Shown in pieces: positions 26,920-56,345 of a stretch of DNA of 64,000 bases. This DNA comes from Bispira polyomma (Eukaryota). Location: assembly GCA_965649765.1 (NCBI GenBank), contig OZ287753.1, positions 69,254,001 to 69,318,000 on the forward strand, written 5' to 3'. A model generated the notes under the pieces. That model was not told the origin of the DNA. It did not search any database and was given only the letters and a program-made list of their open reading frames with translations. Position numbers and translations under genes: made by a program. Every line of letters starts with the position of its first letter. The first letter of the stretch is position 1.

Positions 26920-27731
26920 GTGTACACAGACTTGGTAAACTGCCACATCTTCAGACATTTTCTGTGAAAAGTGTAGAGACATTTTATTGCAAGATTTCAA
27001 AATGCATTAGATCATGATCTGATTTGGTAGCTCAGGTTTAATTTGAAAGCTACTCCAAATTTTCTGAGTGAAGACTTTGCCCCCATAACCCAGGATAGAA
27101 GGAAGCAACTCCAACAGATATTCAGTGCTGCTCAAAGACACCCGAAGATCAACAGATGTCATTTAAACAGAGACACCCTTGTCATAAATGGACAGAGGTA
27201 TACAGTTGATGCAGTTCATTCATTTCCATTTGGTCTGAATACTGTTAAACGGTCAGAAAAAAAACTTACAACGAAGGAACGTATGGCCTTTTTTGGTAAG
27301 GACAACTTTCTTAGTAATTTTCACCTAAGCTCGTCTGTTGACAATGATCAAACTTTCGGTAGACTACACTACTACCAGTTCAAAAAAGCGGCATACTTCA
27401 ATGACCACCTAACTGCAATGGCAATCTTGGCATCAAATCTCCAAACCAGGCAAAGGCCCTTAGCTACAAAATGAAAGACTATGATAAGAGACTGTGGAAG
27501 GCCGTGGCAGAACAATCTATGTTTAAAGCTGTTACAAAGAAATTCCAGCAAAATGATGCCCTTAGAGTAAAACTTAAGGAAACTACTGGAGTGTTGATTG
27601 AAGCAAATCCCAGAGATACATACTTCTTATGTGGCTTGTCATTACAAGATTCAAATCTGGAAGTGCAGTCGAATTGGAAAGGCCAGAACATTCTTGGAAA
27701 TATGCTTTGCCAAGTATGTAATTCTCTTTAA
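26920..27731 (+). pseudogene. L1 ORF1p (RRM end + CTD) fused to C-terminal NADAR/YbiA-like domain (L1-B)
   Basis: VHRLGK...IARF...LKATPNFLSEDFAPITQDRRKQL...DTLVINGQRYTV (L1 ORF1p) in the same frame as AFFGKDNFLSNFH...HYYQFKKA; after frameshift W...MFKAVTKKFQQNDALRVKLKETTGVLIEANPRDTYFLCG...WKGQNILGNML (NADAR). Confidence 0.88.
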
Positions 27732-29810
27732 ATAAATGTTGATTACTATCAAGCTGTCCTAAAATTATAGTTATGTACTGTTTCACTATTTGTAACTAAT
27801 TTGCAAAAGAAAGTTTGAAAACAGAGCATGTTTGTAACTTACACTTAAGATGCAGTAGAACAGTCACTATCGAACCCTTTATTATCTCAATACTGAATTT
27901 TATGAACATACTTGTACTCTCCTAAATTGACATCTTCTTTTTATTTATACTAAAGTACTTATTCTATTTTATGAAGTTTCTATTGTCTCAATATGTTCAG
28001 ATGATGGGTTTCTTTTTTACTTTTTATGCATATCTATTTTATAATGTAATGCAAACACCCAATTTAGTTACATAATTAAAGACAGCAATGTCAACAAAAT
28101 AATATATACTATGACATGTTTAAGAAAGAGAAAAAATGCTTAAATTATGTGTTTGGCTATTATTTAAGTTTAATTGGTGTTTATTCAGTTGTACTGTTTT
28201 TATAATCACAAATGTACTTTAGTGTATGTAATACTAATATGATATATATCAGTAGGTGTATGTAATATTAATATGATATATATTAGTAGGATCAACAGTA
28301 TTATCAATACCATGCATTGGAATTATTAAACACATAATTCCTGTTTATACAGTAGAGTTTCAGTGTGGGCTATATGTACAGACAAGGAGTGTTATGACAC
28401 ATTCCCTAACCCCATTTAAAGAAGTCGACAAAAAATACACAATGGGCTTTAATATTTTAAAGTACTGTTTCTTTGGTTATATGTGATATATGTTAAACTG
28501 TAAATACTTACAAATTAGAATCAGCTGTAAACTTGGGCAGCACGGCCAAAATGCAACCCAAGGTGAAACACTAAGTTGCCTGTCATCATGTGATAAGCTA
28601 TATTTACTTAAATGTATTGTTACCTTGCTACATGTACACCATTGAAAATTCAGATATTAACACTGGTTTGTTCAATATGCACTCTTGTAGTGTTATTGCA
28701 GTCAAATTAAACATGATGAAATCTATAGGTGAAACATGGGTTATTTAAAATGCACTATTACAAGGTTATAGCATTCAATATGCACTATTATAAGGTTATA
28801 GCACTTTTAGCTAAAGAGTTGCTAGCCGGTACTAGCACACCACACCAATTCAATTAATGACTGATGAAGGGCTGTTATTTTCTAACCAAAATAACTAGAT
28901 GCCTGTACTGTCACCAGGTGAGAATGGCAATAGCAGCCCCAGTGCTAGATATAATAGGGCCTGTACTGGCCAAAGGATTCAAACCATATATACCACATTA
29001 GACTTTGCATCAAAAGTGTAAATAGGAAATTGTATAACACACCATAATGTCCTATATACTGTTTAACACGAAACCACCTAAATACCTAGACTAGGACTAA
29101 TATAGCTTTTGACATCATAAATAGGTTGATGAATGGTATAAAATACAATACTTTTTATCAAAAAAAACCCTAGAAATATGTGTTTTATGTTGTAGCTAAG
29201 CGATGATTGGCATATCAGTAATGTGCAGTATCATAAAAGTTATGATGTGTGAACTACTAGCTCAAAGGTTTCTTTTTACCGTATTGTAAATGTCATTACA
29301 ATTAATGCTGAGTGCATTTTAATATTAGTTCTATGAAAGTACTAAACACTTTTGTTAAAATAGTAGAAGTATACATGTTTAGCCTCCCTTTTTTAAACTT
29401 AAAAATGGTTTTGTTGTAATTGTTACGAACCATACATGGATGAATTTAGATCTTCTGTTTGTTACTCTCCCTCCACTTTCATGTAAATTTTACTTTTTCA
29501 ACTAATTTGTTATTGTAAATGATTCCAGTATTCAATACAAATGAGTTCAAAAAGTAAATTTTAATATGTGTCTATCAATTATTGTGTCATGGTTTTTTCA
29601 GTTTTATTTTGTTTGAGAAAGTCACTAAGGTGATGTTTGTGGGAATACACTCTACTTGTTAGGTTTTTAATATTTTTAATATGAAATTTTTTAACTAGTT
29701 CATTGTGAGATTTAATACAATTGTTACGCGCCGTTTCGACACCAGGCTCCGATTCGAATCGGCACCCCCTAGAAGGGGTGCCTTTTTGACACCTAACCCC
29801 AATGCATACT

Positions 29811-30203
29811 TGGCGTGGCCATTTTGACACCAAAAAAGTGAATGTTTAAGATTTATTTGAATAAAATCACTATTTTACTTGATTTTAACCAATGAGGTAT
29901 CATTTTAAAGTTTACAACATAGGGATCAAAGTTATTTCTATTTCATAATTGCAACTGACTTATTAAATTTCACAGTAAATCGCTGTGAAAATCAATTTAA
30001 TTAAATTAGATATTTTAGCTGGTTATTAGAATAAGTTAAACAGCGATTTACTAAATAAAGAAGCAATATTTTTTGTAATATTGAAATTTTTGTGTTGTAA
30101 GCTTTAAAATTATATCTTATTTGTCAAAATCAAGCAAGCAATAATAGTTTTATTAAATAAATATTAAAGAATAATTGTTGTTGGTGTCAAAATGGCCTCA
30201 CCA
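29811..30203. mobile_element. Degenerate fold-back/MITE-like element (imperfect ~390-bp hairpin)
   Basis: TGGCGTGGCCATTTTGACACC (29811) vs GGTGTCAAAATGGCCTCACCA (ends 30203); inner sequences also complementary (CTTGATTTT/AAAATCAAG; TTTAAAGTTTACAACA/TGTTGTAAGCTTTAAA). Confidence 0.65.
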
Positions 30204-30251
30204 GATTACATCTTGATGGTTTTATTGTTATTTTTTTAAAAAAGAGAAAAT

Positions 30252-30409: not shown

Positions 30410-32735
30410 TGAGTGAAATAAAACTTATTTCCACAAATTGTCAAGGCTTAAGAGATAAGCATAAACTTTAGGATGTAATGAATTACTGTATACAAAATGG
30501 TCAAATATTATCTGTCTCCAGGATACACATTTACTTAAAGATGATACAAATGACCTTTGATCTATGTCGAATTTTGAATGTATTTTAAGCGGCGGCAGCA
30601 CCAATTCCAGAGGTGTTGCTATTTTTCTTAGTGGTAATTTTAAATATAAAATTGTTGATATTAAAATAGATAGAGAGGGTAACTACATATGTGTAGACTT
30701 GAAACTTGAGTCATTTTCACTTTGAATAATTAATATATGTGCTTTAAATTAAGATAAACCTAATTTTTTTGAATATTTGCGACAACTGGTGCAAGATAAT
30801 ACACAGAATTACATTATTATGTGTGGGGACTTTAATCTAGTTCTCGATCAACAGTTAGATAGTTTTAATTACATCAACAGAAATTCTGAAAATGCATAAT
30901 TTAAAAGATGCCTATAGAAACTTACATCCAACTACGCGGAGGTATACTTGGAGATGTAAACATCCAATAAAAAAAGCTCTTCTTGACTGTTTTATTGTAA
31001 CACAAGCTTTTATCGATCTTATTTCCAACTGTAGGATAAATCCAGATTATAGATCTGACCATTTCTTGCTAGAACTTAACATTGTAACAAATTCCTTTCA
31101 TCATGAAAGAGGTTTATGGAAGTTAAATAGTGCACTACTAAAAAGTCCAGAATACATATTTGCCATTAATAAAGCTGTCCAGGAAGTACAGATAAAGTAC
31201 TCTCTTCTTGTATATAAAAAAAAATTTTATCCAAGGAGTAATTATTTGGATTTACACTAAAGAAGACGATCTACTCTTGGAAATGCTATTGTTGGAAATA
31301 AGAAGCATCACTTTAAAATTCAGTGCTTCGCTTAAGCGCACTAAGGATTCCAGAGAAAAGGAATTAATTAAAGCTGTTGTACAATTTGAAAATAATGAAT
31401 TGAATTTCCAATCCAGTAAATTATTATTGGAAGAAATGAAACAAGAGTTACAAACACTTCGAAAAGTAAAATTAAAAGGCCACATGGTAAGGTCTAGAGC
31501 CCAGTGGTTACACTTTGGGGTTTTTTTGTACTCTTGAACAAAGAAATTATGTTGAGAAAACAATAAAGAAAATCAGTCTGACAATGGACAGTTCATCAGT
31601 ACACAATCAGACATTTTGAACCATGTTTGACAATACTATGCTAATTTATTTAAAAATACAGAATACAATCTACCTAATATAGATCTAAACAAAGTTTTCA
31701 AAAAAAAGTTTATTAGTAAATTAAGTCAAATTGAAGCTGTCACATTAGGTGAACTACTATTTACATTTGAATTAAGTACAACATTAAAAAACATGAGAAA
31801 TAATAAAACGCCCGGGATGGATGGGTTTCCTGCTGTATTTTTTAAAGTTTTCTGGTGTAAAATAAAAATCATTGTTACTAGAGCACTCAATCAGAGCTTT
31901 AAGAAGGGAAAGCTATTAATATCACTACGGCAAACAATAATAAATTGCATTCCAAAAGGAGACAAACCAAGAGAATTTTTTAAAAAATGGCGCCTAATCA
32001 CACTGTTGAGTGTACTCTACAAATTGGTCTCAGGAACTATACCGAACAGAACCAAATTAATTTCACATTTTAAAGTGGTTTTGTAAAGGTTAGATATATT
32101 GGTGAGTTAACAAGATTAGTTTATAACATTGTGAACTATACCAAAAATATTAATATAACTGGGTTATTGATGTTGATCGACTTTGAGAAGGCTTTCGACT
32201 CAATTTTTTAAGAATTTATGTACAATGTATTCAATTTTTTAGGATTCCCCATATTATATTTGCTTGGTAAAACTTTAAAATAATTCTATCCTTGCATCAG
32301 TCGTTCAAGCAGGAGTAAAATCAAAATCTATCAATATAGAAAGAGGTTGTAAGCAAGGGAACCCGATTGCCCCACATTTATTAATTATTTGTGGCCAGAT
32401 TCCAAATTATATGATCAAGGTAAACATGGATATAAGAGGAATATTTGGGGCTAAAAAGAGTTTAAATTGACCCAATTTGTAGACAATACCACTCTTTTCT
32501 TGGATGGTTCACATAAAATTACTACAAGCAGCTTTAAATACAATTGAAATATGTAGATCTTTTTCAGGCCTAAAAATGAATCACAGAAACTTTTGAACAC
32601 TTGGAAAAGAAGAGATATCATTCCAATTGGTAAAATTACTGTTATTAAAACTTTTATCTTATCAAAATTCATCAACCTTTTGTCATCTATCTACTCATCC
32701 GGAATCCACTTTGTTAATCAACAAATAACTATATT
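30410..32735 (+). mobile_element. L1-B ORF2 (APE-RT), degraded; interrupted by the Maverick, resumes at 49227
   Basis: SEIKLISTNCQGLRD, ICLQDTH, NSRGVAI, CGDFNLVLD, DAYRNLHP...YTW, RSDH, NKTPGMDGFP, DFEKAFDS, GCKQG, PIGKITVIKTFILSK. Confidence 0.92.
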
Positions 32736-32892
32736 AGTAGTTACCTGTTTCATGCTTTTTTACACCCCAATGATGAAGAGAGTTAACCCCAAGATCTAAT
32801 AATCCCCCCGAAGACTCAATCAGACCACCCTCAATGACTACTGGACCCCTTACGGAGTAATTGATCATTTTACAAAATATATGAAAACTTCA
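32736..32892 (+). repeat. Maverick left TIR (>=157 bp; weaker similarity continues to ~32980)
   Basis: Reverse complement of 49066-49220 (e.g. TCAGACCACCCTCAATGACTACTGGACCCCTTA). Confidence 0.93.
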
Positions 32893-33726
32893 TTTTAGGA
32901 CTTATATGTGTTCATTGTCTAGCAAAATATTAGAGTGGTCATTTAGGAATTATATGAGAGCGTTGTGAAGCAAAACATTTAGATAAAATTTGCTGACACA
33001 GCATTAATTTATTTGAAAGGTAGACTTTACATAAAATTTGATGACTTTTATTTTTGACATTGAATCAGTGCAACAGCAAATAAATTAATTTGTTAATTAA
33101 TGAAGCATACATTATTTCTTTTGATCTTAATACCAATTTTGATTGGGTGGATTTGATCCAATCAACATTACAGCAAATATAACTATTTATAAATTTTCCA
33201 AACAAAAATTCCATTTATTTAATTTACAAGAGAAACATGGAACGAACAGATGCATCAGACTTAGTTGTTGGTGAAGGATTATTTTGAAATTCAGTCAAAG
33301 GTGGTTTTTCACTTTGTACACCAGCTTTTTCAGGAGGTTTTTTAGTTTCTACACCAACTTCTTCTAAATCTTGTTGTTGAAAATCAACCAAAGGAGCTTC
33401 TATATATTTAAGAGGACAAACAGACACAAACCCATGATTTTCCTTCTAGAAAGACGAATACTTTTACAAGTACGACAACAGAATTAAAACGTTTAAGACA
33501 TGGCCTAAATCTCACTCGCTTCAACCTAAACAACCAGCTAAGGTTGGATTTCTTTACACAGGAATAGGAGAAAGTTGTAAATGTGCTTGGTGTAAGGTTG
33601 TTTTACATCATTGGGATTTTTTTGAAGACGTCTTTTTTAACATAAAAGACACACTAAAGGAAATTGTGCATTTGTTCAGTACTTATTTCCATCAGATCCT
33701 CCACATTTTTAACTGAAAGAATAACT

Positions 33727-34161
33727 ATGGCTGACTATGTCATTGATAGCTTTGAAGGAAAGACAGTGGAAATTAGAGGATCATCCATTTGTGACTATAG
33801 TATAGTTTTAAAAAATAAAGACAATAAGGAAATATCTATAAATAATTCTAAATATTTCAAATTGATGAAAAGTAAAGAACAATTATCAAGCAAGCTCATC
33901 AGATTGTGCCATAAAAAAGAACCAATAGAATTTTATGTTTGTTTGGAAAATGATGTTTTTGCCTATTTACAATCGCCGTTTCAATGCATACAATTTCGCA
34001 GATTCTTCAGGTTTGGTGGACAACGTCTCCCCACATTGGATGGAATATCTTTGAAATATGTTCAGTGGTTTAAATCAAATCAAAAAAGAACATCCTCAGA
34101 TTTTCTATACTCATCAGAACCAAGAAGATTTCTTCTCGAGTCCTCCATGCAACCCAAATGA
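33727..34161 (+). CDS. Maverick PC4-like ssDNA-binding protein (possibly frameshifted near the C-terminus)
   Basis: VFAYLQSPFQCIQFRRFF...RLPTLDGISLKYVQW resembles the PC4 motif (IR.Y...PgkkGISL...qW). Confidence 0.6.
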   Translation: MADYVIDSFEGKTVEIRGSSICDYSIVLKNKDNKEISINNSKYFKLMKSKEQLSSKLIRLCHKKEPIEFYVCLENDVFAYLQSPFQCIQFRRFFRFGGQRLPTLDGISLKYVQWFKSNQKRTSSDFLYSSEPRRFLLESSMQPK

Positions 34162-34509
34162 TGAAGTAGACGTAGCCAAAGTTTCAGAAGCAGATCAAAA
34201 TTCAACAGAGAATAGTTTATAAACTTCTTATTTTATTATTCAGATTATCAGTGAATATTTTTTAAATAATTTCAGCGGATTAAGAATTTCTTCTCATACA
34301 TAACTCAGCCCCTTGGTAAAGTAACAGTTTCAGAAGATTCAAAACTTTTTTTAAACTTAAGAAAGACTCTTATAATTTTTTATTTGCATGTAATTTAGTA
34401 AAGACTTGGTAACCTTATTAAATGGAAATATATTAGTTATTTGTGTAATTAAAACAATGTATTGGTTATAATAAAAGTAATTGTCTTCATTAACGTTTTG
34501 ATATTAAAC

Positions 34510-35144
34510 ATGAAAGTTATTCAATTTAAAACTCCTTCTACTTGGATGATATCTGGAATGACTGGTACTGGAAAAACAAGTTGGTTGTATAAATTATTAA
34601 TGGCTAAAGACCTTATGTTTAAAAATCCACCTAAAAAAATTATCTATTGTTATTCCATTTGGCAAACTGTGTTTAACGACATGGAAAAAAAATATTTAAA
34701 TATCAAAATTGTTGAAGGAATGCCAAATTTTGAAAATTTAAAAGCTATATTTAACTCAGATCACAATGTAATATGCTTAGATGACTTCAACACGAGGTAG
34801 CCAACAGTAAAGACGCAGAAAAGCTGTTCACTCAAATAAGTCACCACAACAATATTACAGTAATTTACACAAATCAAAACTTGTTCTATCACAGGAAATA
34901 TTCTAGAACTCTTAATCTTAATACAGCTTATACTGTATTGTTAAAGAACCCAAGAAATCTGCAACAAGTAAATATCTTATCACAACAAATTGGTATGAAA
35001 AGCTTGTTAAAACATGCTTATATTGATGGTCTTGAGAAACCTTATGCTTACTTAATTTTTGATTTATCACCCAAAAGTGTGGAGGCCTACAGAATATGAA
35101 CTAAATTTTTTACAAATGAATTACCAACTATAGTATATCAATGA
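34510..35144 (+). pseudogene. Maverick packaging ATPase (A32/FtsK-like), frameshifted
   Basis: Walker A GMTGTGKT, Walker B VICLDD, LFTQISHH.NITVI...QNLF, SRTLNLN..Y.VLLKNPRN, YAYLIFDL. Confidence 0.92.
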
Positions 35145-35193
35145 AGGTTTTTGAACTTATCCTCAGTTCTAAGGAAGGACATAACGAAGGTCG

Positions 35194-35757
35194 ATGGTAT
35201 CTTATGTTAGAAAACATAAGGAATATATTATTTTGATGTTGACAGCACCTGTTAATCAATCAAAAGCATTGTTAGACACAATTTCTCTTGATCAAGTTAA
35301 TCTTATAAGTGAAATAGCTCATAATTTCTTGAATATTCCCTTGACAAATAAACAAAGACACATTTTATTAAATCCTTACAATTTCATCAATGAAAATGTT
35401 AATTACTTAGAACTAAGTGTGGATGGACAAAGTGTTCTCAGCAAGCTCTCAAACCAAATTTTTCAACAGGAGATTTTGTCTCCTCATACCTTACTTTCAA
35501 ATAAATATCCTCACCACGCTGGAAATTATATTAGTAAATCTGACTATTCAAACGGGTATGGACTTTTTGCATTTGATATTCAAGGAGAGACAAATAATGA
35601 CTTAATGGGAAAGCTTAAAAAAGGGCACACAAGATGGCAGCTTAAGTTTGGTTCAGCAACGTCTAATTCTTTAATGGTTATTGCTTATTCAATTTTCCCT
35701 AGAATGGTTATTGTTGGTAAGCTAGAAATATCAAAATTCAATAATGGATACATTTGA
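35194..35757 (+). pseudogene. Chimeric ORF: small post-ATPase Maverick protein N-terminus joined to major capsid protein C-terminus
   Basis: KALL...QVNLISEIAHNFL.IPL (post-ATPase gene) then NPYNF...LSVDGQ...ISKSDYSNGYGLFAFDI...GHTRWQLKFG...LMVIAY (MCP C-terminus). Confidence 0.75.
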
Positions 35758-36150
35758 ATTAAATCAGTATATACTAAAGGATCCCCATATCTCACAAGTC
35801 TATGGAGGAGTATTACCTAAAGATTTATTACCCTTACAAACAGAAAAACTTTACATTGTTAACCTAGACACAAGTAATCAACCAGGAAGCCACTGGGTTG
35901 TAGTTTACATTCTTAGTGATGAAGTTACAGAATATTTTGATCCACTTGGTAAATTTCCAGACCTCTATTTGAAGTCCTACATGGTATTCAAAGTGCTAAC
36001 TATAAATTCAATGTCAAGAGATGTCAAAGTCGTGTTTCAAATTTGTGTGGTCAATATTGTCTTTTTTTTGTTATTTCAGAGTTAGAGGAGTTTCCATGTC
36101 AGAGATTTTAAATATGATTTCAAAAGATTTATTGTACAATGACCAGTTAG
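35744..36150 (+). pseudogene. Adenain-like cysteine protease of Maverick, frameshifted
   Basis: IVNLDTSNQPGSHWV, EYFDPLG; second frame CQSRVSNLCGQYC (His/Asp/Gln/Cys residues). Confidence 0.9.
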
Positions 36151-36327
36151 TTTATCTGTTTTATAAACACACAGTTTAAAATTGATATATTTTATTATAA
36201 GTTGATGTACATAATTAATACTGTATATACATATGCATACAATAAATAATACTGTGAAATATATATACAAAATAGTTAATAAATACTATACATATTCTAA
36301 TATACAAACAATTAAATAAATATACTA

Positions 36328-36666
36328 CTATCTTATATGTACAAATAAATAAATATATTCAATGCATAGTATCGGTTGTGTTTTTTTCTGTTTTAATACA
36401 CTTAACATCTCCCCTAGAACATTTTGCCCCCGATATTTTTCACTGTGTGTTAATACTGCCACTCTAGCTTCCATTCCACAACCTAGATAGGTGTCTTTGT
36501 CAGCATAAATAGTTTCTTGAAACAAAATATTATCAGAGGATTCTCTAAACACTTTACATTGATCATATTTTTCATTGAGAGTTAATTCTAAAAGCTCTAT
36601 CACACCAAATAAACTGATGTTTATATCTTTCAGTAATTGTACAGTTTTGTTTTTCTCAGAATTCAC
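36328..36666 (-). CDS. NADAR-like C-terminal half-domain abutting/inserted in pPolB
   Basis: EKYDQCKVFRE...DKDTYLGCG...YRGQNVLGEMLSVLK matches NADAR KF.Q...R...D..WG.G...G.N.LG..L. Confidence 0.65.
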   Translation of the reverse strand: MNSEKNKTVQLLKDINISLFGVIELLELTLNEKYDQCKVFRESSDNILFQETIYADKDTYLGCGMEARVAVLTHSEKYRGQNVLGEMLSVLKQKKTQPILCIEYIYLFVHIR

Positions 36667-38450
36667 TTAGAATTCACATATTTTGTAGAGTTGACAAAGC
36701 TGTTAAATTCTAAATCTTGAAGAATCAAGTGTATGTTTTGAGAGTCATACCATTGTAACAAGTCATATTCTAAAACGTTACAAGACTTTAAATCGCTGTA
36801 AAAAGCTTCATTTGGAGGAAGATTTGTTTCTTCAAGTACACTAGGATTTGACAGATATTGATAACAAAAAAACCCTTTTTCTTCTGTTGCATTATAACTT
36901 TTCAAAAAATGGGAGTATGAAAACCCTGGGGCTATATAATGACTTATATCTAAAGATTTCAAAGTTGGTGTAGCTATAGCTAAAAAAGAGTTGTTTCTTT
37001 TCACAGTAAAACATTTTTTCTCAGGATCATCAAGTTTTAAATGTTTGCAAAACAAAGTTTTGATTTACTTAAATCAAGATCATAATTCGAAGAATTGAAA
37101 CCCAAAACAGGGGTGCATTCACAGTAAGTTTGCAAACGCTGTTTTACTGAAGAGACCTTTTTAGACATAGATTTTAAGAAACCACTTCTAGTGGATGGTT
37201 TTTTAGTTGAGTTTTCTACAACTTGTTCAGATTCTTCATGAAACATATTTTCAAGCAACGCTTCTTGTTCTTCACTTTCAGAAATATTGTTTTCATTTTC
37301 ACTGTCATCAGAATAATTATTGTATTCTACTTGAAGATTATTGGTTTTTATTAACTTAATAAAAGCTTAATCAAAACAGTTTGTTGTTTAATCTTTTTTG
37401 AAAAGAAACTGAAGGAATTTCATCTTCTTCAGTTTCAAAACTGTCACTGTTTTGATCATTTTCTATTGAAACCACTTCAAATGATTTTAATTCATTTAAA
37501 AAACTATTTAATTCTTGAAAAGCTGGTTGATATTTCAACATTTGTAACTCTTTAACTTTCCCTGAAATTTCTTCTTTATAGAAAATATTTGAATTAACAA
37601 ATTATCCAGTTTTTCACATTTACTGCACTGATATTTTTTGGCATACAACTTCATATCTTGAACATATGATATATGTTCATTTTGCATGTCCAAGTATATG
37701 GTTTTGTCAAAAGTTTCATAAGAATTATAATGTGTTAGTACACAACCATTTTCTAATCAGTTGAAAAACAAAAATATTCATTTCGAAACAATATTCCAAA
37801 TCTGGAACGTCTTCTAATGTGACTCCTTTAAAATTTTCTTCTTCCTTGATACATTTATATTCCATCCATTCATGAAACTTACTCCTGGTTAAAGCATGTA
37901 TACATTTTTTTTCTTATTATCTTTTAATTCGTGATATGCAAATCAACGAAAAACACACAGATTGTCTGTGTATGACTCTCCTGTTTTGGGTGAATTTAAA
38001 AATGTCAAAACACTCTGGAAAGCTCAAAGGATTTCCTAATATGTAATCCATCAAGCACAAATCAAAATTTATATCAGTTATATATTCTAGTATATATATA
38101 GGCTGTTGGGTCTGTTGTTTAAAATATTCAGTGGGGTTTAATTTCTTGAGTTTGTTTTTCTTAAGATCTCAAATTTGTGTATTTTAAAACAATGAATGGT
38201 TTTGGAAATAGATACAAATTGGCATAAGGAACATAATATCTGTATCGACCTGTTTTCTTGTTCTTCAAAATAAAACCTAAATTGATATTAATTTGGAAAA
38301 CTGTGTCTTGCTTCTGAAATATATTTTCAATGTGATTCATGATTGGTGAGGAGCTAATATATGAGAAACATTTGCTTTGTAAATTTTTCTAATTCAGGAT
38401 TTACATTTTCACCTTGTTCATTTAACCAAGGAGGTGAATCCAAAAGAAAA
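36663..38450 (-). pseudogene. Protein-primed DNA polymerase B (N-terminal/exonuclease part; polymerase domain missing)
   Basis: PVLGFNSSNYDL; KRNNSFLAI...LDISHYIAPGFSYSHFLKSY...EKGFFCYQY...LPP.EAFYSDLK. Confidence 0.88.
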
Positions 38451-38455
38451 CTCTT

Positions 38456-41294: not shown

Positions 41295-41362
<68 letters not shown>

Positions 41363-44881: not shown

Positions 44882-45806
44882 GTCTGGTTTTAAAACCTAA
44901 AATTATCCAAATCACAAAACTATCCAAAATTTGTCGAAATTGTAATTAATTCCTGAATGATGTAAATATAAAATTTTTATGATATTCACCTCTTTTATAA
45001 AGGATGTCTTGATAATAAGCTTCAGAAGAAGAAATTCAACCAATGAAATAATTATCTCAGAATAAAGAAAGTCTAGTAACCAATAAAGTAAAATATTTGT
45101 CCTGTCAAGTGTTTCTTCGTTAGGTTTATTTCGTGGTAGACGGAGTGTGTTTATCCTTTACTAGGTTTAATCTTTTTTAAGTCTTTAGATATTAGTTTGT
45201 ATTGATACAAAATCTTTGTTCTGTATTAACAGATTACTTAGTTATTAGGTGCAAATGTTCTGACATCTGAAATTTTAAGTGAGGTTTTATTTACAGATGC
45301 CGAATTAAATGACATTTATTTATAAAGATTTAATGAGTAATCAGTTCTTTTTACTCTGTCAAGGAACATCAATAAATTTGTATATAATCTTAACTATTTT
45401 ATGCATTTATGACGCACTAATGGATGAATATTTTAACTGATCTTTGATTTTCATGCTAGTTTCTGTGAACTTTTTACACATCATTGTTTTTGCTTTTTTA
45501 TCTACTTCTACAAAAGATCTCAGTTCTTTTCACTCAAAGTTGATCTTTGTTTAGTGGAAATAGTCTAACTGACAGGCTTGGTATATCATGTTTAGACATG
45601 TGTTTATCTTGGAGGGTTTTAGATTATTTAACTAAAGAACTACCATAAGCTAAAATTATACACCCTTATAATCACAAAGTCTAACATAAGAGGATTGACT
45701 TGAATGTTAGGGCTTTGATTTGGGTCTTCATCTTTTACCCCTTAAGCAGTTGTAAAGAATTAAGTTTAACCAGCGAACATGCTTCACTACACACCAAACA
45801 CATATA

Positions 45807-48800
45807 TTTTATTTATTTTTTAACAACAACAAAAAGGAGACATTTACAAGTTATAGTAGATAGAGTTTTTATACTGTATCTATAATTAAACAAAAACAAT
45901 CTCATAGTGATATGTTTGCAATAAAGAATATAGTACATGTTTTACACAAATGTTCAAAAATCCATACTTGCATTAAATACAAAACATTACTAACAATAGT
46001 GTTGTTTACTTTCTATGTTGATCTTTCTGAATTTATTTTTGTTATAAAACATCTTAAAGTACCCCAAAGTTTTTGTTAACTAAATCATTTTGTTTGTATT
46101 GATCATTTACTATTTTTTCTATATATAGCTTATCGTTGAGCATTACTAAAAAATCTAAGAAGAAAGTTGCTCTTTTATTATGCTTGCATTTACTGACAAA
46201 GTATTTACCCATTATTATCACATAATTCAAAACATAAAAAAATTTGGGATCAAACTTGATAAACCCTAGTACAATTTTTAAAACAGTTAAATCAACATTT
46301 ATATCTAATGAAACAGATAACCAACTTTTATCTTGTTCCCAGAAAACACATATGGTCTTGCAATAGTAAAAATAATGCTCAAGATTGTCAATTTCTGAAC
46401 ACCAGTCACAATGTGGTGAATTAACTATACCCCAAAGAAATAATTTATAATTACAATTATAAACCCTGTGCAGAATTTTATATTGTGAAGTCTGAATATA
46501 AGTATCTTTAACAATTTTAAAACTTAAAGGATATATATTCCTCCAGTCAGCATTTTCTAGAAAAGGATAATATTCAATCCATCTATCTTGACTATTTGGA
46601 GGTTTCATATTCTTATGTACAAGGTAATTATATACCTGTTTACTTCTTACTTTAGACAGGTTGTCAAGACAAAGTTTTGGAATGTTGTTAGGCATATTAG
46701 CACTAAAAGTGATTTCTTTTTTAAGTAAATATTTTCAATTTGAGGGTATAGCACTTATTAATTTATTGTATTTCATTACTGGGATACAGATATTATATTT
46801 AGATTCCAGATTTAAGATTGCCTGGTGATCTTGTAATACATCAGCAATATAACAATTACCTGCGTTAAACCAATCTGCATATTCAGCGTTTATTATTTTA
46901 TTTCCAATACAGATTGCAGTATTATTCCACAATTTTTCTTGCTTTACTTCAAATGCATTTTTAGGTGGAGCTGCAATGAAACTGTACCAAGTGTATAATA
47001 AATCAGTATAATAATCAGTTTTTGTTAAGTTTTTAATACTTGAAACAGGTAGTTTGTTATACAGCTGATTTGGCTTAATACCCATCAGATATTCTAATAA
47101 AGACTTCCATTTAGCATTATTATTATTACAGAATCTTTTTATCCACATTATATATGTCGTTTCAACAAGATGCTTTGTGGAAACCATATTTAAACCACCA
47201 TTTTTAACCGATACAATTAGAGCATTTTTTGACACTAGATGTTTACGATTACTCCATATAAAGTTATAAAACATTTTATCAAGTTGAGATAGTAAAGTTT
47301 TATTCAAAGGAAAGACAGAAACAATCTGATAAATGTGTGGTATAATTAAAGATTTTAAAACTGTGATTTACCTTTAATTGTTAAACATCTGGACTGCCAA
47401 CAATTAAGGATTGATTGAATTTGGTGAATCTTATCTCCAATGTTTAACTGAAACATTTCTTTAGAATTAGTGGAAAACCACATTCCTAGTGTCTTAAATG
47501 GTCCAACTTTACAGGCAATACCACATATCTTTTCAGAAACATCCTCTATATTTTCAACTAAGATTGCTTCTGTCTTGACTTTATTTAACTTTAATCCTGC
47601 ATAGCGGTAGAATTCTTCAAATAAAGTGATAGTTTCTTTTATCGAACTTATATCATGCAAAAACATTGTCATATCATCAGCAAACATACATAAACGAATC
47701 TCAGTTAGACCAATATTAATTCCATTTATATTATCTGAATCTCTTAAAACTATAGCTACGACCTCCGCTACCAAAAGAAATAACAATGCACTTATAGGAC
47801 ATCCTTGCCTAATGCCTCGGTGTAACCTAAAAAAAGATGATAGGTTTCCATTGTTTGTAACGCAGCTTTCAATTTTAGACTAAATTACAGAAATCCATTA
47901 TTGAAAATTGCGGCCAAACCCATAAAATTTGACACATATTGTAAAAATTTCCAACTGACAGTATCAAATGCCTTTTCAAAATCGATGAGAAGAATTATAC
48001 ATGGATGTCTTTGCAACTTACAGTACTCAATAATATCAGAGATCAACGAAGGTTTTCACCACAGAATCTACTTTCCATGTATCCAATCTGATCTGGATTG
48101 ATAACTTCCGGTAGAGCAGCTGTTAATCTGTTTGCCAAAACTTTTGACAAAACTTTGTAATCTGTATTTAAAATTGACAGAGGTCTCCAGGATTTCAATT
48201 CAGTCAGATCACTGTCTTTTTTAGGAATAAGACTTGCAGTGAGTTCACCAGTGTGAAAGGCAAATAGAAAACTGTTTAGAACTAATTCTCCTATATCATT
48301 CCAAAATACTTTATAAAATTCACTTCGAATTCCATCTAGACCAGGTGTTTTGTTGATTGCTAAATTTTGCACAGCCTTTTGGACTTCTTCAACTGTGATT
48401 TCTGAATCACACGACATTTTTACTTTTTCAGAGACAGATGGAATGTTGACATCTTTCAGATAGTTTTGATATTGATCAATATGTGGACTATTCTGATCTT
48501 CTGAATACAAGTTATAGTAATATTCCTTCTGTTTATCTAAAATTTGTTTAGAATCAAATATTATAGTTTTTCCAACTTTTAAAGAGCGGATATTTTTAAT
48601 GTTATAATTTGCTTTTTCTAGGTTTAAAAAGAATTTTGAAGGCTTTTCATTCTCTTCTAAGTTTTTACATCTTGATCTGATAATTGATCCTAGGCCTTTC
48701 TGTCTACAAATATCTTCTATTTGTCTTTTCACACTGTTATATTCATCCATAATATCCATGTCTTGTGCATTGTCTAAAGTATATTCAAGGCTGTCTAACC

Positions 48801-48826
48801 TATCATTCAAATTCTGTAGGTCAATG
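45807..48826 (-). mobile_element. L1-C, 5'-truncated L1/Tx1 LINE inserted in the Maverick
   Basis: ORFs 48043..48846, 47355..47786 (MFADD), 46735..47307, 46054..46695 (CDWC...EHYFYYC); A-rich tail at 45807; 10-bp TSD AACACATATA at 45797-806 and 48827-836. Confidence 0.95.
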
Positions 48827-49065
48827 AACACATATAATGGTTTCATCTTTTATCCATTGAAAAGTGTGTAGAGAAGTGTGTTTAGCCTGAGGACATGCTT
48901 TGCTACACAATGAACACATGAGTCCTAAAATGATCACTCTGAAAAACCTTGTTCATTTTACTACAACACACCACTCAATTAGCCTTTAAAGGATTATTAC
49001 AGTATTCACCACACTTTTTCTTGATACAACAGTCAATCCTCTTTCCCTCTTTAAGGGATTGCTCT

Positions 49066-50049: not shown

Positions 50050-50400
50050 AACATGTTTAGGCATATATTGTTATACAATGAGGACAGTTTATGGGTAATT
50101 AAATCTGTGTCAATATTTAACATATAATCTGCTAATATAGCACATCCATTATTTTGATTTTTTTAATGTCAGTACAGCTAATTTTTGCAATAATATGCAC
50201 ACTAAAGATATCTGGCATTCTCATACCACCAGAGTAATAATTTACTATAATTTTCCAATCCAAGAAAGATTAATTGACAAATATACAAAATCATTTCAAT
50301 GGATTCCAAACTGTCAAACTTTAATTTGATTGTTCCGTTTTTATCATTTGCAAACCATACACTTAATTTTGTAAAATCAATATAGGCTGATTGGTTGAAA
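50050..50400 (-). mobile_element. Short L1 ORF2 fragment related to L1-D
   Basis: GGMRMPDIFSVHIIAK, similar to GLRMHDIFSIHICAK at ~51350-51400. Confidence 0.5.
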
Positions 50401-53400
50401 TCTTGTGTAAAGCTTCAATTTCAATTTTTTATACTTTTTTTCTGTTTGTTGATTTTCTTGTATGACATATACATTAGCACAATTCGCAAAAAAACACTGT
50501 TACAATACAATGAAGACAAAAAAAACAAGATACAAATACAAATGCTATATGCACACAAGTAAATATGATGCTCTAGTGTGTCGATACAGGGGCAAAAATT
50601 ACAAAACAGGTTTTGTCTAATACTCCATTTATACAAATTATAGTTACAGTTTAAGGTTCTATTAATGATCCTATACTGGAATATTTGTAAATATGTTTCC
50701 TTTTTGCATTAAAAATACTTTTCCAGGGAGCGAATTCTAAAGATGGGAATAAATCTATCCATGTGTTAATAGAAGTAGGTTCTTTTAATTTTCTATTAAC
50801 TACCTCCCAGTATAGGGCTTTATTGCTCACTTGCTAAACCTACTCATTTTTCATTTTATCCTTATACAAATAGTGGATACTGCTGCATACCCGGAGTAAT
50901 TGTCTTTAACCTTTGTTTCCATGATTTTGGTATAGCGCTACAAAAAAAGTATTATAATTGTATAAACTATTATTCCACTTGACTTTTTAGGTTTTGAAAT
51001 TTTAGAAGATGTCCCTTATCATCTACAATATCTTTTATTGTTATATTCTTTGTATTGCTCTTTCATAATTTAAAAAGGTTGTTTTCTAGAGGTTTGCTGT
51101 CTGAACATATAAATTTGTTGTCATATAAGTAATTATTCAATATTTCCTCTAAGGTCTCTGGAGGTCTGCTGTTAATTACATGCCAGCATTCCAATACCTA
51201 TTAGTGAAAAACATTGTGGCCTTTATAACAGTAAGACAATGGTAATTTATGTGTAATTAAATTTCTATCAATATTTAACATATACCATGTTAATGATGCC
51301 CATTTTGGCATTTGAGTATAATTGAAAGTAATCTTTTAATCCATTTTATTTTAGCACAAATATGAATACTAAAGATATCATGCATTCGAAGCCCTGCTGA
51401 GCTAAAGTTAGATGAAATGGGTTCTTTCTTCTTAGCAGGTTTCTTGTCCCATAAAAAATTGAATAACATTTTATCTATTTTTTCAAGTATATTACTGAGG
51501 TATTACCAGAGTTTTCATAATCAAATATCAAATATTTCTTTCCATGAGAGATTTCTAGACAACCAAATATTCAAGATCTTTTCCATAGATTTCAATCTAC
51601 TGTCAAAATTTAGTCTGGTCATTTCCGCTTGGTCAAAGGAGCTTGGTTAAAAGCATCATGACTGGCGTGAATCTTACCAAGTTCTTTTGGGAGTTTTAAT
51701 TTACATTTCCCTACAGGTACTGTTGCTTTTTCTAAATTTATTTTTAGACCAGAACATTTTTTGAAATTGTTCAATGATGAAACGGAGTCTACTAATGAAG
51801 CAATATTACTTAGAAATAAAGTTGTATCATCTGCCAGTTGGCATATTTTGTATTCCTCTTTACCCACATTAATTCCACTGATAGCCTATAGCCTACTGAA
51901 TGTATATAGCCAAAATCTCTGCTACTAAAAAAAAGTAGTGCTGAGATAGGACACCCTTGGCGTATTCCCCTAGTGAGGTTGAAGTATTGTAAGAAGTAGC
52001 CATTATTGCAAACACAAGACTGGATATTCTTGTAAAGTATATTTGTCCACTTTAAGAATGTTTCACCAAAGTTGCAGGATTATAAGCATTTAGAAAGAAA
52101 AGACCATTCTACATTATCAAATACTTTTTCAAAATCAACAAGTACTAAATAGCCAGGTAAGTTGCTTGTATCAGAGTAAGATATGATATCTTCTATAATT
52201 TGAACATTCTGTCCAATGTATCTATCTTTCATATATCCAACTTGATCATTATTAATCAATTTGGGCAGAACTTTTTGAAGTGCTTTTGTTAATGTTTTGT
52301 AGTCTGTATTCAAAATACTAACAGGCCTCCAGTTACGTAGGTACCTTAAATCTTTACCTTCTTTTGGAATAAGTTTGAGAATATCTCTTCTTTGATCATC
52401 TGTCAGTGTGCCACTTTCAAGAGAGTAGTTGAAGCTATCAAAAAATATATTTTTAATATCAGACCAAAAAAACTTATAGAAATTAGTTGTGAACCCATCA
52501 TTTCCAGGTGTTTTCTCATTAGATAATTGCTTTAATGTTGTTGAAATTTCTTTCATCATTAATACTTCATCACAAAATTGATTCTCTAAATTATCCAATT
52601 TTGGGATATTTTGGTCAGTATGAAAGATTTTTTCAATATGATCTGTCTCCCTAATCTTTGACGAATAAAAATTTTTGTAAAAAAGTTTCTGTCCCATCAA
52701 AATAACATCTGGCTGTGTGAGCTTTTGATTTGAGAATAATACCGTCTGTCTTTATTTTTTCTAATTTTTCCCACTTTGATTTAGTTTCATAATATTCATT
52801 CATTTTATCTGGGTTTTCATTCATCTCTTCTTCTAACATTTCAAAATCGCATTTTCATTCTCCCTTGTTTGCCTTGACTTTTGTTTTGCAAATATAATTG
52901 TTTTTATTTGTAATTGGCATTTCACAAAGTCCCATAAAATATTCTTACTATCCATTACTACATCTGTTTTAATAGTCTCAACCTCTCTCTTGATCATGTC
53001 AATGTAATCCATTTCTTGGAGTAATTTATTATTAAATTTCCAATAACTAGGACCTCTCTGATGTGTATCTAATATTTGGATTTTTAGTTTAATCACACAA
53101 TAATCAGACCTATTACCTGGTTTTATAGTACATTCTATATGACCTGATAAGTAACATATTCTGATATCAACCAGAAGTCTAATTTGGACTGTATAAGTCC
53201 ACCTCTTGACCTTTCTTGTCTTGTAAATTGTAACTCATTTGGATGTCTCAATCTCTATATGTCCACTAAGTTTAATTCCTCCATTAAACTTTCTGTTTTG
53301 TATATCAAGAAGTCACACCACTCATCCCTCCCTTTTTGTCTAAAACACAGTTAACTTGAGTATTAAAGTCGCCCCCTATTATTAGGTTGCCTGAACTATA

Positions 53401-54237
53401 ACCTTGTAATAATTTCTCTCATATCTGACAAAAATTTGATATGGAAATCTAAGTGGTCCTTTGTTGGGGCATAAATAGATATCAGTACAATGGACATATC
53501 TTCAATTTTACAGTTAATAATAAGCATTCTACCTTCGTCATCTTTAACTACTGTAATTATTTTAAAACTGAATCTTAAATTCTCCGGAAAGTTTCCCCTT
53601 TCCATTCTTTCCCCCAATTTATCTCCTCTGCAGTGTGTTTCTTGTACATAAGTAATACCAGCATGTACCTTTTTTAACCACTGAAATATATTTTAACGAT
53701 TTTTTAATTCTCTCAGTCTCCTACAGTTGAAGGAATTGACCACTAATTCATCAGTTTTGATTGGAATTTTGTATTCTTGATCTTGCAGCTTGATGAACTT
53801 TTTTATACTACAATTCCCATATGAAAAATTTTGATATGAGAATAACAAAAATTTATATGTCTTGTAAATTACTTTAGTTATAACTGTGACCACATCAACA
53901 TACATACATGACCATTTCAGTATCAAATATTGTACACCTGAATAATAAAACCATAATATGTATTTTATATATAATCATTTTAGTATTGAATGTTGTCCAC
54001 ATAAAACAAAAAACATAAAAATAACAAATATTACATAAAACAAGTATTCCATACACTCTGTATGTGAGTACATTCTGCCAGCATTAGCTAACATGACAAG
54101 GAAAATGCAGTGTGTCATGTTTTTAGAGTACATCAGTCGGTACAGACATTAAACACAGTACCTGTATAAATACTGTACCTGTTTCCAAATATCTTAGAAC
54201 TATTTGCTTTCGCAACTTTTCTTTTAACTACTACCAC

Positions 54238-54460
54238 TAACTAAACTAATTTTAACTGTCCCATGAGATGAACCATAGCATATGTTGCATTAAAAAAATA
54301 GATAACCCATATTATTTGCTCTATAGAACTTTAAAAATAACTAGAAGCTAACTCTAACTAAAATAATTTTAACTCTCCCATAAGATCAACTATAGCATAT
54401 GTTGCACTAAAAAAATAGATAAATATTTTGTCTATAAAAATTTTAATAATAACTAGAAGC
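54238..54460. repeat. ~111-bp imperfect tandem duplication in the L1-D inter-ORF spacer
   Basis: TTTAACT.TCCCAT.AGAT.AAC.ATAGCATATGTTGCA...ATAACTAGAAGC x2. Confidence 0.85.
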
Positions 54461-55039
54461 AATCAACATATAAGTATAGGTACAATTTGTACATCAACTG
54501 CAGTAAGTGTGCTATTTCAACATTTCAACATGCAACATTGTTTTCAGACTATAAATACATAATGTTTTAAACATTAACTTCAATTCATTCTTAAAGTTGT
54601 CCACTAGAAGTATCAAGTACTGTTTACATTATAGTTAAAAATGGTTACCACAGAGTTACTACAATTACTCTGTGGTTGTTCACTCTTATAGATTTATTAA
54701 TACAAAAACATTATGTACATGTGTACTTTATGGTACTTAATTACATTCTAGCTTTCAACTTTAAAAAATACTTAAATGTTGATGTTTTGGTACTCACAAA
54801 GATTATATTTTTTTTAGAATCAAGCTTTACATAATCTAAAAAGTTTAATAGCTCTTTGGTTACCTAGTATAGTTAATTTAAATATATGATGATACTTGTA
54901 GATGCTTATGTTATTCAGCCTTACAATGTATACCAAAACAAGAAAGTATAGCAATGCTCAGCAATAGTCTTTAGTAAATGTTCTTTTCCCTGATTTATCT
55001 CTAAAGTGTTTCTCATATAGTTCATTTTTTACTCACAGT

Positions 55040-56345
55040 TCAGGACAGTTGTTGGTTTTTCATTCTTTCCCTAATGTCTGTTAGACTGTTACCTAAGACA
55101 TTCTTCCCTAGCCAGCAGTTCTTATCCAGAATATTCGGATCAGATAGGCACAGCCCACAGGAAAAGAACTTGTCACTTTGATTTGCTTCTACCAAGGTTC
55201 CGTGGGACGACATCAGTTTCTCTTTCAGTTTTGTGTTTTGGTTAAACTTCAGTAGACATGCCTTTCTCATTGTTGACTCTGCGAGAGACTGCCACCTCTG
55301 CTCATCCAGACCTTTGATTTGATAAGAAAGACCCTTCATTCTGTTTGGCTCTGTTGCTCTCATGATGGCACTTGCAGTATTTTTGTCATTAAAGTACAAA
55401 TTTTTCTTCTATAGATAGAACTGCTCAGAGCGTGAATAGCTGGTCCCTTCATTAATAAAATGGCTTGCGTGGAAGTTGCTGAGGTAAGACTCACTCCTAA
55501 AGAAGAAAGTGGAATCACATTCCCTTAGTGCTCCACTTTCACGGTCCATCTCAGTTTTTGTGGAAGACTTTCTGTATTTTCCACTGTATACTTCTTGCCT
55601 TCAATAAATAGTTTGTCCCCCTTTAAAGAACACTGCTTAACCCCTAAATCTTTCCTAGCGGCCTTGAAGCATGGAAGCAAGATCCTCCTATTCTCTCTGA
55701 CTGATTTTGGGTAATCTTCTCTCACAAAGTGAATCCTACCTTTCAGTTTCAAGCTAGCTCTCCTTATTTCCTCTCTGTCTGGGTAGTATTGAAAGCGGAC
55801 TATGACTGTTCTTGGTCTCTTGTTACTATAAGAAGCAGGAGGGTGGAACTTACCCAGCCTGTGAACTCTGCCCAGCAACATTTTTCTTTCCTTGGTGACT
55901 TTAAGTGTATTTTTGAAGGAACTTTCAACTTGATATTTTCATCTGGAGATTCAGGTATCCCATCAATTAACAAATTATATAATAGGACTGTAAATTGGTC
56001 ACATTATCTCCTAACTTATGTAGAGTTGCATCCTGTTCTTTACTTTTGTCTTCCAATTTATTTACTTTGAGCTCAAGCTTGTCAATGTCATTTTGCATCT
56101 CTGCTTCAACTTTCTCAACTGCTTTGATTTCCTTTTTTATAATATTCAGTTTATTAATAATGAATGAAAATGCCTCAACAAACCAGTCTGGAGCACTCTT
56201 GTGTACCTTTAACACTGCTTCATTTTTTTTCAATGTCTGTTAAGCCGTCATCCTTGTTTGGTGATAACTTATTATCCATCCTTTTTATCACAGACTGTTC
56301 TGACAGGGGTGATACTAATAGCTCTTTTGCCCCTCTCTTATTCAT
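55040..56345 (-). pseudogene. L1 ORF1p (coiled coil-RRM-CTD) with C-terminal NADAR domain (L1-D)
   Basis: Coiled coil (IKAVEKVEAEMQNDIDKLELKVNKLE), LIDGIPE, RVHRLGK...PRTVIVRF, EDYP...RR.L, GDKLFIEGKKY; then FF.SESYLSNFH...SEQFY..KK...KFNQNTKLKEKLM...LVEANQSDKFFSCG...WLGKNVLGNSLTDIR; several frameshifts and a stop. Confidence 0.9.

Follow-up and report, generated by a model that had tools for sequence, protein, structure and literature searches.

NADAR domains in described proteins and mobile elements

A NADAR domain has been reported in ORF1 of Tx1 LINEs of Crassostrea gigas and in the Gypsy Pol of Ectocarpus, in a short note accompanied by an alignment figure (PMC12477816). The window analyzed here, a stretch of 64,000 nucleotides of Bispira polyomma DNA, has similar YbiA-family NADARs in ORF1 of L1/Tx1-type LINEs, and the novelty of this fusion, raised in a preliminary description of the window, is therefore withdrawn. 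Relative to that report, the present analysis adds the genome-wide scale, the intact catalytic residues, the selection on the domain, its presence in CR1/L2-like elements, and a fusion in Mavericks. The domains are predicted to have the same fold as the YbiA-subfamily hydrolases represented by a Phytophthora NADAR (8BAU) and Escherichia coli YbiA (2B3W) but differ from these in being fused to element proteins. Residues E43, K50, K75, W89, E125, and D130 of these enzymes are kept in ORF1, whereas R93 and D86 are not. The DarT1-NADAR (DarTG1) systems and the orphan NADARs of phages may share a common logic with the elements described here, that of a mobile element erasing a guanine ADP-ribose mark, but the DarTG1 NADARs belong to a different subfamily. 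The ORF1 domains here have a last-strand Glu instead of Asp or His, and the Z score against 8BAT is only 6.4–7.5; the last-strand Asp of the BC4488 subfamily (DarTG1) does not characterize the ORF1 NADARs, 60 of 61 of which have Glu at this position.

Among viruses of invertebrates, nido-, hepe-, and picorna-like ones also have NADARs in their replicase polyproteins, where they were proposed to counter host ADP-ribosylation (PMC9503650). As here, the domain is in one polypeptide with a replicative polymerase, but the carriers are RNA viruses, and the main text of that paper mentions neither polintons nor transposons. The type II (Tnp22) ORF1 proteins of L1, CR1, and L2 have the same coiled coil-RRM-CTD organization across RT clades as those of this genome, and exchange of ORF1 between clades has been described, but no NADAR module is listed in the domain table and available passages of that paper (PMC4120745). 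According to the available passages on pPolB2 Polintons that contain a VSR, known from molluscs and a marine nematode, these share with the Mavericks here the VSR insertion, integrase, ATPase, protease, AGTAGT ends, and 6-bp duplication; in contrast to the elements here, no C-terminal NADAR-like domain is shown for them in those passages or was found in the supplement (PMC10748475). NADAR does not occur in the main text of a survey of pPolB domains (PMC11161782) and had no matches in the supplements of Polinton papers, and no paper linking NADAR to Mavericks was found among the matches listed in literature searches. The C-terminal NADAR is apparently an undescribed pPolB domain.

Arrangement of the elements in the window

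Three NADAR-like segments had been noted in the window, and all are genuine by comparison with the Pfam NADAR family (PF08719). Segment 1 (27405–27728, plus strand, E 5.6e-20) and segment 3 (55043–55408, minus strand, E 8.9e-26) are above the cut-off, and segment 2 (36331–36666, minus strand, E 8.8e-4) is a partial match to the C-terminal quarter of the model alone. Segments 1 and 3 are identical at 41 of 92 aligned residues, which agrees with the earlier view that none of the segments was recently copied from another. They are sister lineages (SH-aLRT 95) and therefore represent one acquisition.

Element 1 is a broken L1/Tx1-type LINE on the plus strand. Its ORF1 remnant (26920–27731) comprises the CTD and the NADAR, which starts at ~27286, and contains a frameshift near 27445; the first catalytic Glu is missing but is present in a sister copy (L177). 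The ORF2 (30430–32890), which encodes endonuclease and RT, is also broken. Between the two ORFs, a high-copy, MITE-like repeat of ~490 nt with internal inverted similarity (29722–30203) is present as an insertion, recognized from dozens of matches at 85–89% that are confined to positions 2923–3404 of the query. In other copies the segment 1 NADAR is co-linear with the ORF2 that begins near 30430.

The Maverick/Polinton (32955–45118) is internally deleted and is 71–84% identical to a 20.75-kb sister copy on C5, on which the hallmarks of the element ends were scored: AGTAGT termini, ~0.7-kb terminal inverted repeats, and duplication of 6 bp of the target. On the plus strand, the window copy has a remnant of a BIR (inhibitor of apoptosis) gene (33450–33713, E 5e-11), a broken packaging ATPase gene (34453–35096), and a broken region (35363–36176) with an adenovirus-type protease and the end of a putative major capsid gene, which follows a 3.3-kb deletion. 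Sister copies have matches to rve (E 2.9e-7), Pox_A32 (E 7e-4), and Peptidase_C5 (E 4e-3), and a relative, P0069, matches DNA_pol_B_2 (E 1e-3). A conserved ORF of 429 residues at the place expected for the capsid gene in Mavericks has no Pfam match and is a candidate double jelly-roll capsid protein. On the minus strand are the broken N-terminal part of pPolB, from the zinc fingers to the exonuclease region (36670–39000), and the C-terminal two-thirds of a degenerate NADAR-like domain that ends pPolB (36331–36662). Comparison with the sister copies shows that a 2.4-kb deletion, with its junction at 36662–36670, took out the polymerase domain together with ~55 codons at the start of the NADAR. 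The attachment of the segments to core element proteins, as first described, was upheld for ORF1p (segments 1 and 3) and for pPolB, but the adjacency of segment 2 to the exonuclease is a deletion product, and insertion of a NADAR into the PolB exonuclease is ruled out.

Two further minus-strand elements follow. An L1/Tx1-type ORF2 remnant (46054–48849) has no ORF1 here; its peptide, compared by eye, is near-identical to ORF2 of a family with a NADAR-ORF1 (L149). Element 3 is a broken L1/Tx1-type LINE with an ORF1 (55040–56345) that comprises coiled coil, RRM, CTD, and NADAR (~55043–55513) and a broken ORF2 (50400–53970) with endonuclease and RT. Segment 3 and its ORF1 and ORF2 occur together across the entire 3.1-kb query in three other copies at 88–90% identity and across 2.9 kb of it in a fourth copy within the same range; ORF1-NADAR frames of 415–442 residues are unbroken in two of these four sister copies. 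The RTs of elements 1 and 3, which from their motifs would be of the L1/Tx1 clade, group with the majority type in this genome: they are 35–36% identical to that of L131 and have 25% identity or no match to that of L144.

The three NADARs of the window are decayed copies of two designs that are common in this genome. The linkage of NADAR to these elements, first proposed from this locus, extends beyond it, with ORF1p and pPolB fusions present genome-wide and in other genomes.

NADAR domains of ORF1p and pPolB

The anatomy of both fusions is near certain. The LINE ORF1p has the coiled coil, the RRM, and the CTD of the human L1 type, followed by a C-terminal NADAR. NADAR-tailed ORF1 is also found in CR1/L2-like elements of this genome, and this ORF1 is common to two RT clades. 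The predicted model of ORF1 superimposes on human ORF1p (2YKO) with a Z score of 10.7 and an rmsd of 2.6 for 182 aligned residues, and the ORF1 profile matches 2YKP with an E value of 2.4e-14; Pfam Transposase_22 did not match these ORF1s, and a search of the genome with PF02994 found no ORF1. The NADAR scores 115–149 bits as compared with a Pfam cut-off of 35.1, and its predicted model aligns with 8BAU over 161 residues (Z 22.7, rmsd 1.8). The catalytic triad (E43, K50, and E125 in 8BAU numbering) is kept in all 16 LINE families examined from this genome, one with Asp at 125, a set chosen from the top-scoring NADAR matches and therefore favoring intact copies, and in 45 of 45 public ORF1-NADAR fusions, giving 61 of 61 domains. 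K75, on which in-cell rescue depends in DarT1-NADAR, is likewise found in all 16 families and in 44 of 45 public sequences.

Within ORF1, conservation is highest in the NADAR, which has a median identity of 46% as compared with 32% for the RRM and CTD and a higher identity in 109 of 120 pairs, with saturated synonymous sites. Among variants common to copies in three LINE families, 4 are nonsynonymous and 13 synonymous. The ORF1 NADAR is under purifying selection, and so is that of the Maverick pPolB, in which dN/dS is 0.23 as compared with 0.18 in the adjoining end of PolB (20 of 91 pairs unsaturated); the expectation that selection acts on the NADAR part was borne out for both fusions. There is no difference in net charge between the groups.

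The Maverick NADAR resides in a VSR-type pPolB of ~1,800 residues, a class assigned from a profile match of the VSR insertion to E. coli Vsr (E 0.001). In the unbroken copies L066 (1823 residues) and L080 (1821 residues), the NADAR is the in-frame C terminus of pPolB. It has a NADAR profile match with an E value of 3e-8; its Pfam score is 27–33 bits in copies from this genome, as compared with the cut-off of 35.1, and 62 bits in P0067. The predicted model of the domain aligns with 153 residues of 8BAU (Z 14.2, rmsd 3.2) and matches 2B3W with a Z score of 12.5, and the next unrelated match has a Z score of 4.7. E125 is mostly lost, usually with Tyr or Phe in its place, K50 and E43 are often lost, and four loci of this genome lack 15–25 residues of the domain. 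Because the triad is complete in none of 26 loci from this genome (0 of 14 and 0 of 12) and in only 2 of 75 public domains (3 of 75 if a nearby Glu is counted), the Maverick NADAR would, judging from its residues, be mostly a pseudoenzyme.

The public relatives of the Maverick pPolB-NADAR form 74 clusters at 50% identity. They were found by a full profile search; a word-index search with the Maverick tail among long proteins found nothing, and a scan of IMG/VR with the Maverick alignment found no relative. The Maverick NADARs form a single clade, which is old, and the two public members with an intact triad branch outside most of the degenerate ones. An origin of the Maverick domain from LINE ORF1 was considered and not adopted; one LINE row is its sister with a support of 81–83, and monophyly of the LINE domains is not rejected (p-AU 0.24). 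On an unrooted tree of 55 pPolBs, a sample drawn with a NADAR-bearing profile, the distribution of the NADAR tail requires four changes, whether gains or losses.

Possible roles of the two domains

The ORF1p of L1 forms trimers, and these cover the RNA from which the protein is made. In the reading that we prefer, and for which the case is close to balanced, the LINE ORF1 NADAR erases base ADP-ribose and the Maverick NADAR is a noncatalytic binder. The ORF1 NADAR would remove ADP-ribose from guanine (or cytidine) in RNA or cDNA of the element itself. Three active sites would sit on each trimer along the RNP, bulky base adducts may be cleared ahead of reverse transcription, and the writer could be a host CARP-1-like transferase. 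The Maverick domain may have started as the same kind of eraser, because its two intact public members branch outside most degenerate ones, and may now bind an ADP-ribose-like ligand or the DNA template next to the polymerase. Neither the net charge, which is alike in the groups, nor the loss of 15–25 residues of the domain at four loci of this genome speaks for such binding. The preliminary description had proposed an eraser for LINEs and Maverick alike; this is plausible for ORF1p, in which every tested catalytic position is kept, but the idea fits LINEs only because the Maverick triad is mostly incomplete.

YbiA-type NADARs hydrolyze N2-ADP-ribosyl-guanine on DNA and RNA (PMC11543638, PMC11833690). 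A guanine-N1 mark made by a PARP was not removed by NADAR in one test, and NADAR is inactive on phosphate-end ADP-ribose; therefore, none of the usual marks made by animal PARPs is an evident substrate. Models for Scabin-like enzymes, DarT (PF14487), and pertussis S1 matched nothing in the genome, a search in which no positive control rang and in which introns or divergence could conceal CARP-1. Homologues of CARP-1 have been found mainly in bivalves. Descriptions of CARP-1-type enzymes treat them as toxins whose target is DNA, and we know of no description of them as transposon defenses. A broader proposal is that molluscs, annelids, and other invertebrates of the sea ADP-ribosylate the bases of mobile nucleic acids, as an animal counterpart of DarTG1, that LINEs answer with an ORF1p eraser passed between clades, and that a large Maverick lineage keeps a dead reader or decoy that was once an eraser; as a whole, this is doubtful.

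The intact residues of ORF1 also fit other N-glycosidic substrates, such as riboflavin intermediates, or a role of the SNA-3 type. NADARs have ties to riboflavin clean-up and to the processing of RNA, SNA-3, a splicing protein of nematodes, uses NADAR domains in trans-splicing, and RNA processing was suggested for the oyster domain itself (PMC12477816). An active ORF1 NADAR could thus serve in housekeeping of the RNP, acting on RNA intermediates or small N-glycosides derived from NAD or ADP-ribose with no host defense involved, as would suit a genome in which the three writer models had no match. We think this unlikely. The match to human L1 ORF1p is confined to the region before the NADAR, and among 150 related pPolB clusters, 31 stop directly after the polymerase, so the NADAR is optional and lineage-restricted, as expected of a host-specific conflict; it has also been gained repeatedly, in Gypsy, LINE, and Maverick elements and in RNA viruses. 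It is rather improbable that both domains are mainly modules for binding nucleic acids or nucleotides, with catalysis incidental even in ORF1p. The purifying selection on a Maverick domain without the triad shows that the fold has a use apart from catalysis, and domain 1 of SNA-3 also lacks key residues, but the ORF1 triad is invariant even where synonymous sites are saturated in pairs from this genome. Horizontally gained NADARs help ladybirds to resist bacteria, as cited in PMC12945103, and the lack of a matched host writer, from models without a positive control, would also suit an ORF1 NADAR that guards against microbial ADP-ribosylating toxins and not against a host anti-transposon enzyme; we give this little credence, since the domain's attachment to an RNP protein that acts in cis, and to a polymerase that replicates the element, suggests that the substrate would be the element's own nucleic acid. 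A special system at this locus, with NADAR recruited separately by each of three unrelated elements or with the three acting jointly, is rejected as extremely improbable on the genome-wide distribution of candidates: the chance of three in any one 30-kb window is 4e-5 to 1e-4, but because the genome has 2,147 candidates, plus 793, a few clusters are expected by chance (1.3–3.3 windows with at least three, assuming uniform placement and candidate counts that may differ from true copy numbers), and all three copies are broken, ordinary decayed repeats of which the two LINE domains are sisters.

The preferred reading, an eraser in ORF1p and a binder in Mavericks, bears on the role of animal NADARs and on the clam DNA-modifying enzyme CARP-1. 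The invariant NADAR site on the RNA-packaging protein of many LINE families allows a direct test, with existing assays, of a transposon defense based on base ADP-ribosylation in animals. In the Maverick fusion, nature provides a gradation between intact enzyme and pseudoenzyme in which selection continues. Many of the genes annotated as NADAR or YbiA-like in such genomes are probably parts of transposons.

NADAR segments in the window and across the genome

Each of the three NADAR segments read from sequence in the preliminary description matches Pfam NADAR: segment 1 (27405–27728, + strand; E 5.6e-20) in the LINE designated element 1, segment 3 (55043–55408, − strand; E 8.9e-26) in a second LINE, element 3, and segment 2 (36331–36666, − strand; E 8.8e-4), in a Maverick pPolB, at the end of the model only. 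All three are in broken copies. A search of the 1.035-Gb genome gave 2,147 NADAR candidates, and all 150 that were scored had E < 1e-36, many of them within open frames of 400–460 residues. The Maverick polymerase end plus tail as query gave 793 candidates, 142 of which were scored, with full-length matches of 37 to 100% identity. Under uniform placement, 1.3–3.3 windows of 30 kb with at least three NADAR matches are expected genome-wide, a figure based on candidate counts, which are not copy numbers. The cluster therefore does not represent a system, and the proposed local system of three elements is not borne out; the original observation is confirmed and its interpretation partly supported.

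The window also includes a large palindrome (~2670–11140 and 11455–~19775; arms of about 8.4 kb with 97–99% identity, ~450-nt centre) and, about 47.4 kb away, a third, direct copy of the arm (~58365–64000; 90–98% identity). Within the duplication lie fragments of L1 ORF2 and sequence of glycosyltransferase family 8; an uninterrupted 401-residue frame matching this family (57858–59060, − strand; E 1e-14) and repeated in part at the centre of the palindrome is possibly a retrocopy or element cargo. Inverted NADAR-bearing pairs a few kb apart elsewhere in the genome (C11:26194613–26202692, C9:50142771–50145737 and C6:51687985–51694699) have identical scores, suggesting that further palindromic duplications like that of the window exist in the genome. 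A decayed element (~22390–25450, + strand) with RT-like and tyrosine-recombinase-like peptides is DIRS/Ngaro-like by eye.

The NADAR domain of LINE ORF1

Among 20 high-scoring NADAR loci taken from the genome, 18 have an RT downstream of the ORF1-NADAR; of the remaining two, one shows just the endonuclease in the sequence taken, and the other is followed by a different element. A profile of 49 ORF1s matches both human L1 ORF1p (E 2.4e-14) and the Phytophthora NADAR structure 8BAU (E 4.7e-36), and the AlphaFold model of ORF1 (pLDDT 90) gives Z 22.7 to 8BAU and Z 10.7 to the human ORF1p structure 2YKO. In sister copies of element 3, ORF1, spacer and ORF2 form one unit (three full-span, one nearly so); ORF1 is unbroken in two of them, with the catalytic residues retained. 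Element 1, which has a ~490-nt insertion, and its ORF2 are co-linear in sister copies. The claimed attachment of NADAR to L1-type ORF1p holds in intact copies genome-wide and in public proteins, where 58 of sixty related proteins have a NADAR annotation; atlas clusters, with few records, point to annelids. The NADARs of the element 1 and element 3 families are sisters (SH-aLRT 95) and therefore share one acquisition, contrary to the separate recruitments originally proposed.

Two of the 18 RTs, those of L132 and L144, share 60% identity and stand apart as a second type, with about 25% identity to the remaining RTs. L132 and L136, the latter with the majority RT, nevertheless have ORF1s of 59% identity, a whole-ORF1 exchange between LINE types. 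L132 (C7:34799701–34805200), L144 and L016 are CR1/L2-like elements whose ORF1-NADAR shows this 59% identity to that of L136, an L1/Tx1-type element; we take these labels from motifs, and the DIETNPGP motif at the start of their ORF2 is presumably 2A-like. Swapping of ORF1 among LINE clades is already known (PMC4120745).

Catalytic positions (PMC11543638) were mapped onto the ORF1 NADARs through 8BAU alignments. The triad of Glu43, Lys50 and an acidic residue at 125 is complete in 16/16 LINE families of this genome (the 20 loci less two same-family duplicates, L134 and one locus whose domain contains a stop), in 45/45 public fusions (from 59, after 13 truncated and one without a match were dropped) and in 12/12 prokaryotic controls; the set from this genome was drawn from the highest-scoring loci, which favours intact copies, and the public set was found through whole-ORF1 similarity. 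Lys75 is kept in 16/16 and 44/45, respectively, and Arg93 is not retained. NADAR is the best conserved part of ORF1 (46% identity versus 32% and 23%), surpassing RRM/CTD in 109 of 120 pairs, whose synonymous sites are saturated. Variants common to copies within three LINE families are 4 nonsynonymous and 13 synonymous, and private variants are 61 and 44.

The NADAR-like tail of the Maverick polymerase

The window Maverick (~32955–45118) is aligned at 71–84% to a copy of 20.75 kb that has inverted repeats, AGTAGT at its ends and a 6-bp target duplication. Genes for integrase, ATPase and protease are present in sister copies, and the polymerase of these Mavericks has a VSR insertion, as does the mollusc-type pPolB2 (PMC10748475). 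A deletion of 2.4 kb at ~36662/36670 has removed from the window copy the polymerase domain and the initial ~55 codons of its tail. In unbroken frames of 1,799–1,823 residues the NADAR-like domain is the in-frame C-terminal end of pPolB, and the claimed attachment to pPolB holds. Of the 150 top-ranking public clusters (50% identity), 74 match without a break from polymerase end into tail, 31 stop within 45 residues past the polymerase, and the other 45 are partial or of another kind. The tail scores 27–33 bits in Pfam NADAR, under the cut-off. Its predicted model, confident in most blocks (pLDDT about 90), gives Z 14.2 to 8BAU and 4.7 to the next unrelated match; Foldseek on the PDB ranks 8BAU and E. 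coli YbiA (2B3W) at the top, but with no E < 0.001. These Mavericks also have a BIR (inhibitor of apoptosis) gene (window 33450–33713; L180:2567–3055) and several unannotated ORFs, some judged membrane or mucin-like by eye.

The proposal that this tail is an eraser of ADP-ribose fails in this genome: the triad is complete in 0/14 aligned loci and in 0/12 further loci chosen from a genome search with an intact query, and in 2/75 public tails. Most tails have Tyr or Phe at position 125, Tyr being the commonest replacement of the catalytic Glu; Trp89, the GxN motif and the AKF-motif lysine are conserved. In the 20 of 91 pairs that are unsaturated, dN/dS is 0.23 in the tail against 0.18 in the end of the polymerase. 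The tail is for the most part a conserved pseudoenzyme, and selection suggests a non-catalytic binding or structural role. Maverick NADAR domains form a single clade (support 100 and 99); a group of nine degenerate members excludes the intact ones (support 86), which fits, if weakly, decay from an active ancestor. Two public tails that are 68% identical, P0061 and P0211, differ at the catalytic Glu, intact in one and Tyr in the other, suggesting that it has been lost repeatedly. The trees give no clear support for a LINE origin of the tail, monophyly of the LINE domains not being rejected (p-AU 0.24). Four in-frame tails (L190, L191, L192 and L200) have lost 15–25 internal residues, and two public proteins have several NADAR domains, seven in P0062 (4240 residues) and three in P0184 (2914 residues).

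Possible function and earlier reports

ORF1p trimers coat their own RNA. Such a trimer would bring NADAR to element nucleic acid, and it is quite possible, if short of probable, that the domain clears base ADP-ribose adducts from element RNA or cDNA. YbiA-type NADARs strip ADP-ribose off guanine in DNA and RNA (PMC11543638, PMC11833690, PMC11125620) and off cytidine (PMC12945103); they are reported inactive on phosphate-end ADP-ribose (PMC11833690), and in one test NADAR did not remove a PARP-made guanine-N1 mark (bioRxiv 10.64898/2026.03.31.715305). Three ADP-ribosyltransferase family models, run without a positive control, gave no match to a host writer of the mark in the genome; CARP-1 homologues, known chiefly from bivalves, are the ones that diverge most within their family (PMC12945103). 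A housekeeping role in the RNP is rather unlikely, and in its favour an RNA processing role has been put forward for NADAR in transposons (PMC12477816), with SNA-3 as a comparison (PMC9303266). That NADAR domains act by binding only is improbable, and defence against foreign toxins by the ORF1 domain more so.

Both Gypsy Pol of Ectocarpus and the ORF1 of Tx1 LINEs in oyster have been reported to contain NADAR (PMC12477816); the ORF1 fusion, taken in the preliminary description as possibly new, is therefore already known. Invertebrate RNA-virus polyproteins also have NADAR (PMC9503650, whose main text does not mention polintons or transposons). The main text of a survey of pPolB domains (PMC11161782) does not mention NADAR. 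No NADAR-Maverick link was found in the supplements of PMC10748475, PMC11131425 and PMC8502044 or in searches of the open literature, which did not extend to subscription journals, bioRxiv supplements, de Souza & Aravind 2012, Repbase or Dfam. The NADAR-like tail of the Maverick polymerase appears undescribed so far, and the LINE ORF1-NADAR is a known fusion that the present analysis strengthens.
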